Made by a program: the position numbers and the translations under genes
Notes under the pieces: generated by a model
Database searches by the model: none
Seen by the model: only the letters and a program-made list of their open reading frames with translations
Told to the model about the DNA's origin: nothing
In this document: positions 1-4,046 of the stretch, piece after piece
Position numbering within the stretch: the first letter of the stretch is position 1
How the letters are laid out: each line of letters opens with the position of its first letter
Source of the DNA: a virus
Lineage: Duplodnaviria > Heunggongvirae > Uroviricota > Caudoviricetes
DNA: 4,046 nucleotides
Strand: one strand, 5' to 3'
Virus record (IMG/VR): IMGVR_UViG_2698536339_000020

Positions 1-540
1 ATGAATCCGTTTAACGCCATTACTTTTGCTGCATTGTGCGGGCCTCTGGCTTGTCCTGCTGCTATGGCGCAGGAGTTCATCATCCAGCCAGCCCCTGTGA
101 TTGCTAAACCTTTTGAGTACTCTCCTTCTGTTGAGGAATTCTCACGCAAAATGGAAGAGGGTAAGGAGATCTTGCAAAAGTTAACAATTGCAGCAGATGA
201 CTACTATATCTGTTTGATTGATCTTAATAGCCAAGATGCTCGCGAGTTTGTTTCCAAAAACGGGACAGATACGACAGAGGCATGCGAAATGTTCCTGCGT
301 GCTTTTGAAGAAGAAGTGAAGCGTACAATTGAATCGCCTCTACCTGAATTTATCAGGTCAGAACTGAAGGTTTACTGGCGTCATATTGCTAAAGCTCGCT
401 CATCTGTCACTCGCCTTAACAATTACATAAAGAGCATATTTAAAGAAACTGTTACTTTTAGCGGGCGCGCGGATCTTGCTGGAATTGCAGCACTAGCTAG
501 TCACACATCAAATAAGCTAAAATCGATGCAATTTCACTAA
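1..540 (+). CDS. Hypothetical protein with hydrophobic, signal-peptide-like N-terminus; candidate partner of the downstream YafO-family toxin; may be 5'-truncated by the window edge
   Basis: Frame is open from nt 1 (ATG) to TAA at 538-540. The N-terminus MNPFNAITFAALCGPLACPAAMA is an uncharged hydrophobic stretch ending in an AxA-like AMA; no K/R n-region is visible, so the true start may lie upstream of the window. The remainder is charged and helix-like. No family recognised by eye. The stop is 16 nt before the next gene start, suggesting one operon. Confidence 0.6.
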   Translation: MNPFNAITFAALCGPLACPAAMAQEFIIQPAPVIAKPFEYSPSVEEFSRKMEEGKEILQKLTIAADDYYICLIDLNSQDAREFVSKNGTDTTEACEMFLRAFEEEVKRTIESPLPEFIRSELKVYWRHIAKARSSVTRLNNYIKSIFKETVTFSGRADLAGIAALASHTSNKLKSMQFH

Positions 541-556
541 CCGATAGCGGACGGCC

Positions 557-991
557 ATGCATCTAGAAGTCTCTATTAATCCAGAAACTAGAGCTGAATT
601 TTTTGATGAAGTTTTTCTCAAATTCCCGGAGCTAGAGTCTTCTATCATTGATGATTTCAAGAGATACAAAGCAACCGGTGAGCTTCCGCACTATTTCGGT
701 AGGGACGTTGCGTATACTCAGCCTTATGGTGCTTTTCGGGCTGGGTTGATGCATATCCATCTTTGTCTACCGCCAAACAAGTTTCCCGAGAAACTTCCAC
801 AACCGGATAGGGTCTGCAAGAAAGGTGATCCTGATAATGATGCTTGTCTTGTGTATGTCCAAGGTGAGCTTTATGAGAATAAATATTCACTCATTGCTAT
901 TATGTATCCCGATGCACATGAAAAAGCAAGAAAACATGATGTGATGAGCTATCTGGCGCGAATTGCCCAGAATTATAAAGATGAAAACTAA
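557..991 (+). CDS. Type II toxin, YafO family (ribosome-dependent mRNA interferase-like)
   Basis: The 144-aa translation carries the blocks I recall from E. coli YafO: YK(A/R)(T/D)GxLP..FGRD..Y, then HIHL followed by a proline-rich stretch (LCLPPNKFP), then D-A-x-LVY-x-QG, then LIAI..P(D/E)(A/P)H(E/K)(K/L)AR. ATG at 557 is the only start before residue 65; the upstream SD is weak (GGA). TAA at 989-991 is followed immediately by a terminator hairpin. Confidence 0.8.
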   Translation: MHLEVSINPETRAEFFDEVFLKFPELESSIIDDFKRYKATGELPHYFGRDVAYTQPYGAFRAGLMHIHLCLPPNKFPEKLPQPDRVCKKGDPDNDACLVYVQGELYENKYSLIAIMYPDAHEKARKHDVMSYLARIAQNYKDEN

Positions 992-1011
992 CCCGCCGAA
1001 GCGGGTTTTTT
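991..1011. terminator. Rho-independent terminator, probably bidirectional, between convergent genes
   Basis: Perfect 6-bp stem ACCCGC (991-996) / GCGGGT (1001-1006) with loop CGAA, followed by T-run 1006-1011 on the plus strand. An A-rich stretch AAAACTA (984-990) gives a partial U-tract for the minus-strand transcript. It sits in the 26-nt gap between the plus-strand stop (989-991) and the minus-strand stop (1018-1020). Confidence 0.75.
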
Positions 1012-1017
1012 GTGAGA

Positions 1018-1290
1018 TTAGTTATTTATTTTCCTATTTGTTCTTACCCTCTCCCATTCAATTCTGCCTTCTTCACGCCGTTTATCTATATATTCAGCAA
1101 GATCCTGAATGTTGATGCAGCGCTTTGCTTTCTGTGATGTACCAACACGATAAGTCGGGATCGGCAACTGGCATGCATTTGCTTTCGCTTCTGCTGTGTT
1201 AGGGCTCATACCGAAATACTTTTGGCATACAGCTGACAGCTCAATGTTTGGGGTATTGAATTCAGCCATCAGTAAAAACAAGGTGTTCAT
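1018..1290 (-). CDS. PrtN-family / excisionase-like (Xis-like) small DNA-binding protein
   Basis: Translation from ATG at 1290-1288, MNTLFLLMAEFNTP...VCQKYFGMSP...SQKAKRCINIQDLAEYIDKRREEG..., matches the PrtN/phage excisionase-like pattern (MNTxFLLMA ... VCxxYFG ... SQK ... DLAxYIDxRR). SD GGAG (1300-1297) lies 6 nt upstream of this ATG. The longest ORF extends to GTG at 1317 and there is another ATG at 1302, but neither has a comparable SD. Stop TAA at 1020-1018. Confidence 0.8.
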   Translation of the reverse strand: MNTLFLLMAEFNTPNIELSAVCQKYFGMSPNTAEAKANACQLPIPTYRVGTSQKAKRCINIQDLAEYIDKRREEGRIEWERVRTNRKINN

Positions 1291-1326: not shown

Positions 1327-1899
1327 TCATAATTCTGTGCTGGTGGCAGGAATTAATTTCTGCCAGATAGCGGAAACATATTTTGCCTGATGACGGGCAT
1401 CAGCCAGGGCGTTGTGCCGTTCGCCATCGAAAGGCATGTCCATTTTGGGGTCGAATCCGATGGAACACCCAAGCGTAACGATCGTGCGTACATCGTGGTC
1501 ATTCCAGTATGCCCACGGGCAGATTTGTCCTGCTCGCTCATAAGCTCCACGTAAAATTACGTTGTCGAAGGTGGCTCCGTTACCCCAGACTTTTAAATAT
1601 TTCGTATTGTCTGCGTGCCGGTTAATGAAATGATTTAGTTCTGAGAGAGCATCGCTGATCGACAAAGTATCATCAATACAGATTGCAGCTCGTGCTTCAG
1701 GGCTTTGTTTCAACCACCACAGGATGGTATCGCCGTCAGGTGTAGCTCCTTGCCCCATAGCACTTTCCAGGCTAACAACCGTATAGAATTCTTGTCCGAT
1801 GTCTCCGGTTTCTGGAGTGAAGAACACCGCGCCAATGGAAACGATCGGTGCATCCTTATTTTTCCCCATCGTCTCAAGGTCGATCATTAAGTTATTCAT
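1327..1899 (-). CDS. DEDDh-family (DnaQ-like) 3'-5' exonuclease, phage-type
   Basis: 190-aa ORF with an N-terminal Exo I-like motif MIDLETMG...APIVSIGAVFF and a C-terminal Exo III-like motif HNALADARH (H-x4-D), typical of DEDDh exonucleases. Strong SD GAGGTG is 5 nt upstream of ATG 1899-1897. The start overlaps the upstream gene's stop (TAATG). Confidence 0.85.
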   Translation of the reverse strand: MNNLMIDLETMGKNKDAPIVSIGAVFFTPETGDIGQEFYTVVSLESAMGQGATPDGDTILWWLKQSPEARAAICIDDTLSISDALSELNHFINRHADNTKYLKVWGNGATFDNVILRGAYERAGQICPWAYWNDHDVRTIVTLGCSIGFDPKMDMPFDGERHNALADARHQAKYVSAIWQKLIPATSTEL

Positions 1900-2210
1900 T
1901 ACTTCACCTCCTGCGTTTCTTTGCTGCTGTGAATTCGCCAGTTACCGACGCCTTCCCATTCAAACTGGCGGTTACTAATTCGCGTCCAGCCCCTGCCGAA
2001 AAGCAAATCCAGATACCAGTATTTTAAAGTTCTGATAATTGCTCTTACAGTTGGTTTGCATCCAGAAGTCTTTGATGCGCAAATAAAGCACCGAGTTATG
2101 CTCATGGCCTCTACAAAAGGCCAGATAAACCAAACCCAGATGCAAAGAGCCACGAACAACATGAGCGCGATGTTAGCCACTAAGCCAGACCAGTACAGAT
2201 AATTACTCAC
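1899..2210 (-). CDS. Small hypothetical membrane protein (single N-terminal hydrophobic helix, Cys-containing C-terminal part)
   Basis: 103-aa ORF. The first possible start after the in-frame stop is GTG at 2210-2208, preceded by SD GAGG with a 6-nt spacer (AAAGAGGCAACCAGTG). Hydrophobic segment LVANIALMLFVALCIWVWFIWPFV, then CFICASKTSGC. Stop TAA overlaps the exonuclease ATG. No homolog recognised; the coding call rests on the RBS, the coupling and the operon context. Confidence 0.5.
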   Translation of the reverse strand: MSNYLYWSGLVANIALMLFVALCIWVWFIWPFVEAMSITRCFICASKTSGCKPTVRAIIRTLKYWYLDLLFGRGWTRISNRQFEWEGVGNWRIHSSKETQEVK

Positions 2211-2691
2211 TGGTTGCCTCTTTCATAAAAATAATCCAGTGGGTTTTATCGTTTTTTCCTGTTCGTTGACCGATAACAGGTTTTCTGTCTGTCAGTGCCA
2301 AAATCTGGCTTACCGGTATTTGCGTTTCATTCCATTTAAAAACCAGAACACCGTTTGGCCACAACACACGAAAGGCTTCTTTAAATCCCTGCCGCAAATC
2401 ATCACGCCAGGTATCTTTATTCAGCCGTCCATATTTCTTTCCCATCCAGGCGTTATCACCAACACGCTCAAGATGCGGAGGGTCGAATACAACAACCGGA
2501 AACGATGCGTCTGCAAATGGTAATGCACGAAAATCTGCTATCAGGTCAGGGCTAATTATCAGGCGTCGTCCATCACATAATGTGTGCTCTTCCTTTCTGA
2601 TGTCGCTAAATATCGCCCGGTCGTCATTCTTATCGAACCAGAACATGCGACTGCCACAGCACATGTCGAGGATTGCTGCATGTCCAGTCAC
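2203..2691 (-). CDS. Small SAM-dependent methyltransferase with (D/N)PP(Y/F/H) amino-methyltransferase motif; probable phage orphan DNA methyltransferase
   Basis: Motif I-like AAILDMCCGS near the N-terminus and motif IV-like VVVFDPPH about 55 residues later. The likely start is GTG at 2691-2689, preceded by a textbook SD AGGAGG (2703-2698) with a 6-nt spacer and overlapping the upstream stop (GTGA). The longest ORF runs to ATG at 2724, 37 nt inside the upstream gene, with a weaker RBS. Stop TAA at 2205-2203. Confidence 0.8.
   Translation of the reverse strand: MTGHAAILDMCCGSRMFWFDKNDDRAIFSDIRKEEHTLCDGRRLIISPDLIADFRALPFADASFPVVVFDPPHLERVGDNAWMGKKYGRLNKDTWRDDLRQGFKEAFRVLWPNGVLVFKWNETQIPVSQILALTDRKPVIGQRTGKNDKTHWIIFMKEATSE
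2207..2220 (-). promoter_or_regulatory. Second copy of the same 14-nt junction motif (GAGGCAACCAGTGA) serving as RBS + GTG start of the small membrane-protein gene
   Basis: Minus strand reads GAGGCAACCAGTGAGTAA: identical 14-mer to 2688-2701, with the GTG start at 2210-2208 and the methyltransferase stop TAA at 2205-2203. Confidence 0.5.
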
Positions 2692-2703
2692 TGGTTGCCT
2701 CCT
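2688..2703 (-). promoter_or_regulatory. Ribosome-binding site / translational-coupling junction (AGGAGG-N6-GTG overlapping upstream TGA)
   Basis: Minus strand reads AGGAGGCAACCAGTGA: SD, 6-nt spacer, GTG start of the methyltransferase, and the stop TGA of the upstream gene overlapping as GTGA. Confidence 0.55.
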
Positions 2704-3209
2704 TTGCGAATCTGCTCCGCCCATTCTTCAAGGGATTTCTCCGCATATTCACCGGACAGGCCATCAATCGGATGCGGTTCATTAGCTAACTCTTCTTTCG
2801 CTGACAGAATCATGCGCGTAACGTCGAAAACTTCACGTAAAGACTTATTGATAAATCCGTGGTTGAAAGCTGCAGCAAGACGACTTGCGGTATAGTTAAT
2901 TCCCTCGTTGCGAGCCTCCGCACGAATTTCAGCCAGAAAAGCATCGGTGGCTGGAATTTGCGGCATACCTCCGCCTGCTGCGCAGATATACGCATCAGAT
3001 ATTTCATCCTGCTCGCCATTAAACACATAGCAACTCTGTACGATAAATTTATTCAGCCGCGCATTCTCCGCCGCCAGCGTCTCGCATTTAGCTTCAAGCG
3101 CGTCGAACTTACGTACTAGGTACTCAGCATTTGTTTCGTTCACTTTCAGATCTCGCGGTACACATTTCCCGCGAAGAAACCCTTCCATTTCGAAAACATT
3201 CATGCGCAT
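2688..3209 (-). CDS. Hypothetical phage protein with a predicted N-terminal coiled-coil region; possibly Ead/Ea22-like (weak)
   Basis: 173-aa ORF. ATG at 3209-3207 has SD GGAG 8 nt upstream. Coiled-coil-like segment EYLVRKFDALEAKCETLAAENARLNKF, Gly-rich CAAGGGMPQIP, acidic C-terminus. The start overlaps the stop of the upstream HD gene, and the stop overlaps the methyltransferase GTG start. Family assignment is not secure. Confidence 0.7.
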   Translation of the reverse strand: MRMNVFEMEGFLRGKCVPRDLKVNETNAEYLVRKFDALEAKCETLAAENARLNKFIVQSCYVFNGEQDEISDAYICAAGGGMPQIPATDAFLAEIRAEARNEGINYTASRLAAAFNHGFINKSLREVFDVTRMILSAKEELANEPHPIDGLSGEYAEKSLEEWAEQIRKGGNQ

Positions 3210-3736
3210 TTGCGTAACTCCGATAACTCGTTAAAACGTTCCATAAACATCCCGTAGGCATGGCCTGGTGACAGTGGAATAACTTTGAACATCTCTGTTG
3301 CCGGGATGCCTTCCAGTACAGGCCAGAAAGAGCCATCATCAAGCCCGAGATCGCGGCGTTCGGTTGCCAGCATGATGAGATCGGCATATTTCACGGGTGT
3401 ACTCATAACTGGGGGTAACCCGTATTTCTCACGGATTACGGCGTCTATTTTTTCTTCCATCCGTTTATAGTCAGGAAGAAGGCGTTTCAGTGGTGCGGGA
3501 ATGTCCTGGCAATACGCTTCTGTTGCATCATGCATTAACGCTTCAAAAGCAAATTCCTGCGGCACCAGCTGGCTGCAAAGCACCGCATGTTGGGCGACGC
3601 TGTAGAAGTGTGAAAGATGACCGGCAAAGCGACAGATATTTGAAAGGGAAACCGCGATATCGTTAATATCGATGTTGTCTTTATTTATCCTGTCATAATA
3701 AAAATGCTTCCCGGAAAAAGTTTTAATAAATGACAT
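3200..3736 (-). CDS. HD-domain phosphohydrolase (YfbR-like 5'-deoxynucleotidase family)
   Basis: H..H...HD...D signature (GHLSHFYSVAQH ... LMHDATEAYCQDIPAPLKRL) resembling E. coli YfbR ([20 protein letters not shown]). The likely start is ATG at 3736-3734 with SD GGAGAA 5 nt upstream. The longest ORF starts at GTG 3766 with no RBS. Stop TGA at 3202-3200. Confidence 0.8.
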   Translation of the reverse strand: MSFIKTFSGKHFYYDRINKDNIDINDIAVSLSNICRFAGHLSHFYSVAQHAVLCSQLVPQEFAFEALMHDATEAYCQDIPAPLKRLLPDYKRMEEKIDAVIREKYGLPPVMSTPVKYADLIMLATERRDLGLDDGSFWPVLEGIPATEMFKVIPLSPGHAYGMFMERFNELSELRKCA

Positions 3737-3829
3737 TTTGTTCTCCACGTATATGTGCTGCACCACGCTGAATTCTGGTAAAAGGAAGCCCTCACCATCC
3801 GGTGATTATTGAGTTAATTACGTTTCCAT

Positions 3830-3851
3830 AAATGCCCCCGCAGGGGCATTT
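3830..3851. other. Perfect 9-bp inverted repeat (hairpin) in the intergenic region, not followed by a U-tract on either strand
   Basis: AAATGCCCC (3830-3838), loop CGCA, GGGGCATTT (3843-3851). Lies between the stop of the partial ORF (3864) and the HD-gene start (3736). The flanks are not T-rich, so it is not a canonical intrinsic terminator. Confidence 0.5.
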
Positions 3852-3863
3852 GCAGTAATGAAA

Positions 3864-4046
3864 TCAGGCGATGAAAGTACCAATGAAGGTTTCTACTTTG
3901 CTGTCTTTGAATTTCTCAACAAGCAGATCACGAAATTCGTTAGCCATTTCTTCCTGCACCGCTTCCAGCTGAATAATGCGCAGAACCAGTACAGGACGAT
4001 CGCCAGTGATAATGCTGAGGCGTAATTTAAACGGACGTTCTTTCAG
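3864..4046 (-). CDS. 3' end of an ORF entering from beyond the right window edge (hypothetical protein, C-terminal 60 aa)
   Basis: The minus-strand frame is open from 4046 to TGA at 3866-3864 and translates as ...[60 protein letters not shown]. The other two minus frames hit stops at once or within about 50 codons. Absent from the ORF track because no start lies in the window. No family recognised. Confidence 0.45.

Follow-up and report, generated by a model that had tools for sequence, protein, structure and literature searches.

The Escherichia coli prophage gene yfdR as the HD-domain phosphohydrolase gene of an early-left lambdoid operon

The yfdR reading frame and its identity

The stretch of DNA analysed here, referred to as the window, comprises the whole 4,046 nt taken from the virus record IMGVR_UViG_2698536339_000020 (Caudoviricetes), and the feature under study is a gene on its minus strand, yfdR, which the initial annotation had described, with no strand given, as a YfbR-like HD phosphohydrolase of the phage. 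The feature, at 3200..3736, corresponds exactly to the extent of an open reading frame (ORF) whose product has 178 amino acids (aa), with the ATG at 3736-3734 and a ribosome binding site ahead of it:

3200..3736, minus strand: yfdR coding sequence, 178 aa, HD-domain phosphohydrolase
3743..3746, minus strand: Shine-Dalgarno GGAG of yfdR, read from the sequence, with a 6-nt spacer to the ATG

A GTG at 3766, from which the mechanical ORF list derives a product of 188 aa, was considered as the start and found to be unsupported: because the homologues all begin at MSFIK, the real product is that of 178 aa. The reading frame is real and coding, and its similarity to other proteins goes far beyond chance. 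Indeed, PHROG 318 matches the product with E = 1e-109, spanning residues 1-178, a collection of 5.8 billion proteins holds 4735 relatives, and among the representatives of clusters at 50% identity there are 22,848 relatives at E <= 1e-3 and 15,453 at E <= 1e-10. Several cluster representatives of 350-410 aa hold two YfdR-like stretches, pointing to a tandem-duplicated HD domain in metagenomic data.

The gene is an ordinary allele of yfdR, an already named, annotated and partly characterised E. coli prophage gene, a fact that the initial annotation had missed. The window protein and K-12 YfdR are of equal length and identical at 172 of 178 positions (97%), and with the yfdR product annotated in the nearest genome it shares 174/178 residues. 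A megablast search with the window evidenced that RefSeq (PGAP) names the gene "yfdR: 5'-deoxynucleotidase" in complete E. coli genomes, and a search with the DNA of the gene alone placed it in 2971 of the 5426 such genomes, mostly at 95-99% identity and in no more than 4 copies per genome. At the DNA level it is also found in 160 phage records, mostly of Stx-converting and other lambdoid phages; plaque-forming phages are among the carriers, such as PhiR40_1, a complete phage genome. As a discovery yfdR therefore adds little, being named, annotated by PGAP and carried by more than half of the complete E. coli genomes, with a partial characterisation of its enzymatic activity and of its binding to DnaA.

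Active site, fold and family placement

The product carries the H...HD...D motif on an all-helical core that defines the HD superfamily; its mononuclear metal site (H50...H69-D70...D119) is complete, and E73 and D78 are present as well. The assignment to a phage or prophage HD-domain phosphohydrolase, against which the initial annotation had set a loss of the catalytic residues on alignment, holds, as these residues are retained in an alignment of 78 diverse YfdR relatives in which conservation was counted:

H50: 78/78 relatives, proposed metal ligand
H69: 77/78 relatives, proposed metal ligand
D70: 77/78 relatives, proposed metal ligand
D119: 76/78 relatives, proposed metal ligand
E73: 76/78 relatives, matches YfbR E72
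D78: 76/78 relatives, matches YfbR D77
K84: 78/78 relatives, matches YfbR K83
E126: 78/78 relatives
R36: 77/78 relatives
F37: aromatic (F or Y) in 78/78 relatives

In E. coli YfbR the metal ligands are H33, H68, D69 and D137, and the specificity for deoxyribose arises from R18, W19 and D77 (PMC8177086). Residues H69/D70/E73/D78/K84/D119 of YfdR align onto H68/D69/E72/D77/K83/D137 of YfbR, and the chain of the YfbR E72A mutant (2PAR) departs from 2PAQ exactly at the E73 column. The N-terminal segment is less straightforward, since HMMER, hhalign and MAFFT all mis-register its R-aromatic...His pattern against R18/W19/H33 of YfbR. H50 is the sole invariant histidine ahead of the HD pair and is aligned with the equivalent histidine of Lin2634 and Atu1052; that it is the counterpart of H33 is inferred, because the sequence alignments are out of register at this point. 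The R36-F37 pair lies 13-14 residues ahead of H50, and R18-W19 of YfbR lies 14-15 residues ahead of H33; no alignment joined the two pairs, and tryptophan is replaced by phenylalanine or tyrosine. Polynuclear HD phosphodiesterases have an extended H...HD...H...HH...D motif (PMC8177086). The stretch of YfdR from D70 to D119 lacks histidines; the extended motif of the HD/HD-GYP cyclic-nucleotide phosphodiesterases is therefore absent and the motif is of the mononuclear phosphatase type.

The description as 'YfbR-like' is correct at the level of the superfamily and fails at that of the family. The Pfam model for YfbR-like proteins (PF12917) scores 24.4 bits, below its cut-off of 25.9, and the NCBIfam equivalog model for YfbR (PRK03826) scores 19.9 against a cut-off of 122. 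K-12 YfbR gives in BLASTP an alignment of 40 residues around the HD motif, with 13/40 identical, and a profile-sequence comparison with YfbR attains 95% probability across 68 columns. Among solved structures, Atu1052 (2GZ4) alone is a clear relative by sequence, with E = 2e-13 from the single sequence and 3e-30 from the profile, followed by Lin2634 and YfbR (E = 8e-6 and 7e-5, respectively). The full-length similarity to K-12 YfdR puts the product in the YfdR/Atu1052 family (PHROG 318; a depositor's note gives 'COG1896'), and YfdR is thus placed in the Atu1052/YfdR branch of the small nucleotide-phosphohydrolase HD proteins.

The structural comparison that the initial annotation had proposed leads to the same placement. 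An AlphaFold2 model, built on an alignment of 85 sequences without the K-12 row, has a pLDDT (predicted local distance difference test) of 97.6 and a pTM (predicted template modelling score) of 0.92. In a Foldseek search of the PDB with this model, 2GZ4 ranked first with a TM-score of 0.78, a match of the whole chain to a solved member of the family, and OxsA, YfbR and HDDC2 followed at about 0.45, which speaks against close kinship with YfbR. The predicted fold favours a hydrolase of nucleoside mono- or triphosphates over a cyclic-nucleotide phosphodiesterase.

Genetic context

The nearest genome carries the element as a prophage adjoining a dusA fragment, and the leftward order of its genes is XRE repressor, yfdP, yfdQ, yfdR, a partial gene, methyltransferase, exonuclease and a PrtN-like gene. 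Salmonella phage ST64B has the same layout (repressor-yfdP-DUF2303-HD-...-Ea22-...-exonuclease-xis-int), and the yfdP-yfdQ-yfdR cluster has been described as common in lambdoid early-left operons (PMC12315714). The placement of yfdR in an early accessory region is borne out by this arrangement, which is that of the early-left operon of a lambdoid prophage (repressor <- yfdP <- yfdQ <- yfdR <- ... <- exonuclease <- xis-like). Within the window the leftward string and its signals are the following:

3864..4046, minus strand: 3' end of yfdQ (DUF2303 family): the final 60 codons, the rest of the gene lying beyond the window; 58/60 identical to K-12 YfdQ (translations read by eye) and annotated by PGAP in the nearest genome
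3831..3850, minus strand: GC-rich hairpin of 8 bp with a 4-nt loop just past the yfdQ stop, from RNA folding, without a U-tract
2688..3209, minus strand: mosaic gene of 173 aa; first 45 aa 43/45 identical to the K-12 YfdS N-terminus, the rest of the ead/Ea22-associated families PHROG 614/368 (phrog_614, E = 3e-78)
2203..2691, minus strand: orphan-type class I S-adenosylmethionine-dependent DNA methyltransferase (PADLOC MTase_II, E = 7e-74; oMTase, E = 7e-49; PHROG 954, E = 7e-89), with the start given by PGAP
1899..2210, minus strand: ORF of 103 aa with a hydrophobic N-terminus (phrog_2531, E = 4e-27), at ORF coordinates, as PGAP has no annotation for it in the nearest genome
1327..1899, minus strand: DEDDh 3'-5' exonuclease, Rv2179c-like (Pfam PF16473, E = 1.9e-74; PHROG 255)
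1018..1290, minus strand: PrtN-family/excisionase-like gene, the last of the leftward string (Pfam PF11112, E = 4e-24; phrog_1300 'excisionase', E = 2.5e-40), at PGAP coordinates
990..1007, both strands: bidirectional intrinsic-terminator-like hairpin from the terminator scan, separating the leftward string from the yafO-like gene that converges on it

The initial annotation had put yfdR at the head of the operon, and this part of it has to be revised. The gene is not the first, because the last 60 residues of YfdQ are encoded at 3864..4046 on the same strand, with a spacer of 127 nt between the end of yfdQ and the start of yfdR, and yfdP comes before both. A start of a separate transcription unit at yfdR was also considered and rejected: a scan of the window found no sigma-70-like promoter site upstream of the gene on the minus strand, the hairpin at 3831..3850 was not called by the terminator scan and is not a canonical intrinsic terminator, and the folding of the entire spacer is not better than that of its shuffles (z = -0.8). 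Located between yfdQ and yfdR, the hairpin could be an element of RNA stability or processing, or a site of factor-dependent pausing.

Downstream, yfdR is translationally coupled to the genes that follow, and the proposed coupling with a methyltransferase and an exonuclease is confirmed, as a run of overlapping genes starts at the yfdR stop. The overlap between yfdR and the 173-aa gene amounts to 10 nt, and the junction is identical to that of yfdR and yfdS in K-12; the methyltransferase ATG overlaps the stop of the 173-aa gene (ATGA), and the 103-aa ORF shares 8 nt with the end of the methyltransferase gene and 1 nt with the start of the exonuclease gene. Of the mosaic gene, whose frame is open for 173 aa in the window, the PGAP annotation of the nearest genome has only the YfdS-like N-terminal part (window 3075-3209), as a truncated pseudogene. 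The methyltransferase has no adjacent restriction gene, the usual signature of an anti-restriction or epigenetic methylase of phages. The 103-aa ORF was examined as a homologue of YfdT and shows no similarity to it.

Beyond the leftward string, on the plus strand, lies a gene of the YafO toxin family (557..991; Pfam E = 1.9e-21), and an ORF of 179 aa (1..540, plus strand) ends 16 nt upstream of it. This ORF bears no relation to YafN, the canonical antitoxin, and has no match in Pfam or NCBIfam and no relative in the PDB, its sole match being phrog_8416; the depositors of PhiR40_1 call it 'YafM antitoxin', with no evident basis. It may represent an uncharacterised type of antitoxin, present as a moron at the end of the prophage. 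An Rfam scan of the window gave a sole match, isrK, at chance level (E = 0.42), which overlaps the hairpin at 990..1007.

Published properties of K-12 YfdR and functional interpretation

The genes yfdQ-yfdR-yfdS-yfdT were isolated as a multicopy suppressor of hda-185 by Noguchi and Katayama (PMC4776307), and in the same work initiation at oriC was inhibited by an oversupply of yfdQRT or yfdQRS, and purified YfdR bound directly to domain I of DnaA in a manner dependent on Phe46, competing with DiaA and DnaB. In later literature YfdR figures as an inhibitor of prophage origin, in competition with DnaB for DnaA (PMC12122000). As for the enzymatic activity, PMC4776307, in its summary of Zimmerman et al. 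2008, presents K-12 YfdR as a weak, metal-dependent 5'-deoxynucleotidase whose affinity for nucleotides is much below that of YfbR. The role in host takeover that the initial annotation considered plausible thus has some published support, namely the binding of K-12 YfdR to DnaA domain I and the inhibition of oriC initiation upon overexpression together with YfdQ plus YfdS or YfdT (PMC4776307).

Taken together, the feature is an allele of yfdR encoding the HD protein of the lambdoid early-left yfdP-yfdQ-yfdR module, and this protein would probably act both as a nucleotide phosphatase and as a damper of host initiation. The gene runs in the same direction as yfdQ, and the metal site described above is complete. 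Upon prophage induction or infection, transcription of the early-left operon would lead to synthesis of YfdR, which would then dephosphorylate (deoxy)nucleoside monophosphates or a related nucleotide and may damp the initiation of host chromosome replication; in turn, damped initiation could free DnaB for the phage replisome.

Several observations weigh against this interpretation. Deletion of yfdQRST does not affect initiation, and the replication phenotype appears only upon multicopy oversupply, the authors themselves raising the matter of an overexpression artefact (PMC4776307). In an engineered strain, deletion of yfdR did not raise the yield of cytidine monophosphate (PMC10870394). The gene set used in the published experiments is incomplete in the window, where only the first 45 residues of YfdS remain, joined to a different domain, and a homologue of YfdT is lacking. 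Given the low affinity for deoxynucleoside monophosphates (dNMPs), a compound other than a canonical dNMP may be the physiological substrate. Finally, the YfdR family occurs without yfdQ in phages of Bacillus, Caulobacter and Vibrio, as well as in Mu-like, large lytic and Queuovirinae phages; because it is found without yfdQ in phages of such different hosts, its conserved function is probably enzymatic and not directed at DnaA. In agreement, the near-invariance of the catalytic residues together with the presence of the family without yfdQ points to catalysis as the conserved core function, in which case the binding to DnaA would be a lineage-specific addition or a by-product.

In a different account, YfdR is purely an enzyme of the nucleotide pool or of house-cleaning, acting on (deoxy)nucleoside monophosphates or on a non-canonical or damaged nucleotide, and the binding to DnaA is a by-product of overexpression without a role for the phage. 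It is favoured by catalytic residues that are near-invariant throughout the 22,848 clusters of this very large family, by the occurrence of the family in unrelated phages lacking yfdQ, within modules of DNA metabolism or early modules, by the fact that the nearest functional folds are hydrolases of dNMPs or deoxynucleoside triphosphates (dNTPs), including the phage dATPase DatZ, and by the unaltered replication of the yfdQRST deletion (PMC4776307). However, the direct, Phe46-dependent binding of the purified K-12 protein to DnaA and its competition with DiaA and DnaB (PMC4776307) argue against it, and the low affinity for dNMPs, as given in the summary cited above, speaks against a bulk remodelling of the pool, so that we consider this account possible but rather doubtful. 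The affinity bears also on the proposal that YfdR is a counter-defence enzyme, which would protect phage replication by hydrolysing a nucleotide derived from a defence system, either a signal or a toxic analogue such as a chain-terminating product: the poor affinity for dNMPs suggests that the physiological substrate may be another nucleotide, the gene lies in an early accessory region beside an orphan DNA methyltransferase, and mutations in T5 Dmp and in NrdAB let phages escape the Clover dNTPase system (PMC12265719), although this is an analogy only, as Dmp is not homologous. No support for it was found: the HD protein matches no PADLOC family at E <= 0.01, and literature searches retrieved no anti-defence role for the YfdR HD family or for yfdQ/DUF2303. 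We regard this proposal as improbable, and give as little credence to its wider form, in which the substrate of the YfdR family is a defence-related or non-canonical nucleotide (toxic analogue or signal), possibly alongside the binding to DnaA; if true, a very common lambdoid early gene would be an unrecognised counter-defence enzyme.

It could finally be argued that yfdR is a decaying and functionless prophage remnant, as its first description comes from the cryptic prophage CPS-53 and truncated or insertion sequence-interrupted copies of it exist. This is hardly tenable: the frame is full-length, the catalytic residues are intact, the identity remains at 95-99% across thousands of genomes and the gene is carried by complete phage genomes as well, so that conservation effectively refutes decay. 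The reading as a phosphatase that probably also damps host initiation is the one we retain. Some interest lies in the role of the yfdP-yfdQ-yfdR module in lambdoid phages, for which the replication phenotype comes from overexpression only, and in the true substrate of the enzyme.

Comparison with known systems

Among enzymes of the HD superfamily, E. coli YfbR (PDB 2PAQ; PF12917) differs in being encoded by a chromosomal housekeeping gene, whereas yfdR is a phage gene, and its ribose-discriminating W19 would correspond to phenylalanine or tyrosine in YfdR, always assuming that R36-F37 is the equivalent pair. Atu1052 from Agrobacterium tumefaciens (PDB 2GZ4), which comes from structural genomics and has no assigned function, is about 25% identical and has insertions of around 20 residues. 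DatZ of cyanophage S-2L (PDB 6ZPA), an HD dATP triphosphohydrolase from a phage, shares about 21% identity over 121 residues; unlike YfdR, it acts on dATP in the Z-genome pathway, no genes of which are present in the window.

A distinct case is that of Dmp, the deoxynucleoside-5'-monophosphatase of phage T5, which is an early phage gene and nominally catalyses the same reaction, from dNMP to deoxynucleoside and phosphate. Homology to YfdR was considered and rejected, as hhalign gives a probability of 0.08% and Dmp belongs to PHROG 415, not to PHROG 318; Dmp is at most a functional analogue. The labels of these two families are misleading, since PHROG 415, which contains Dmp (T5 124..858, minus strand), is called 'polynucleotide kinase', and PHROG 318, the YfdR family, 'deoxyribonucleoside 5' monophosphate phosphatase'.

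The closest system is K-12 YfdR itself (b2361), from the cryptic prophage CPS-53/KpLE1, which has in common with the window the upstream yfdQ, the 10-nt overlap with the downstream gene and the PGAP name. The two proteins differ by six substitutions (R16K, N21D, D23V, K151N, S155A and E169D), none of them at conserved catalytic positions. The K-12-type CPS-53 has the order yfdP-yfdQ-yfdR-yfdS-yfdT-torI beside dsdC, whereas in the window yfdS-yfdT-torI are replaced by the mosaic of a YfdS N-terminus with an Ea22-type gene, the DNA methyltransferase, the small membrane ORF and the exonuclease. In comparison with the decayed CPS-53 of K-12, the element in the window looks like a fuller lambdoid prophage, located at dusA.
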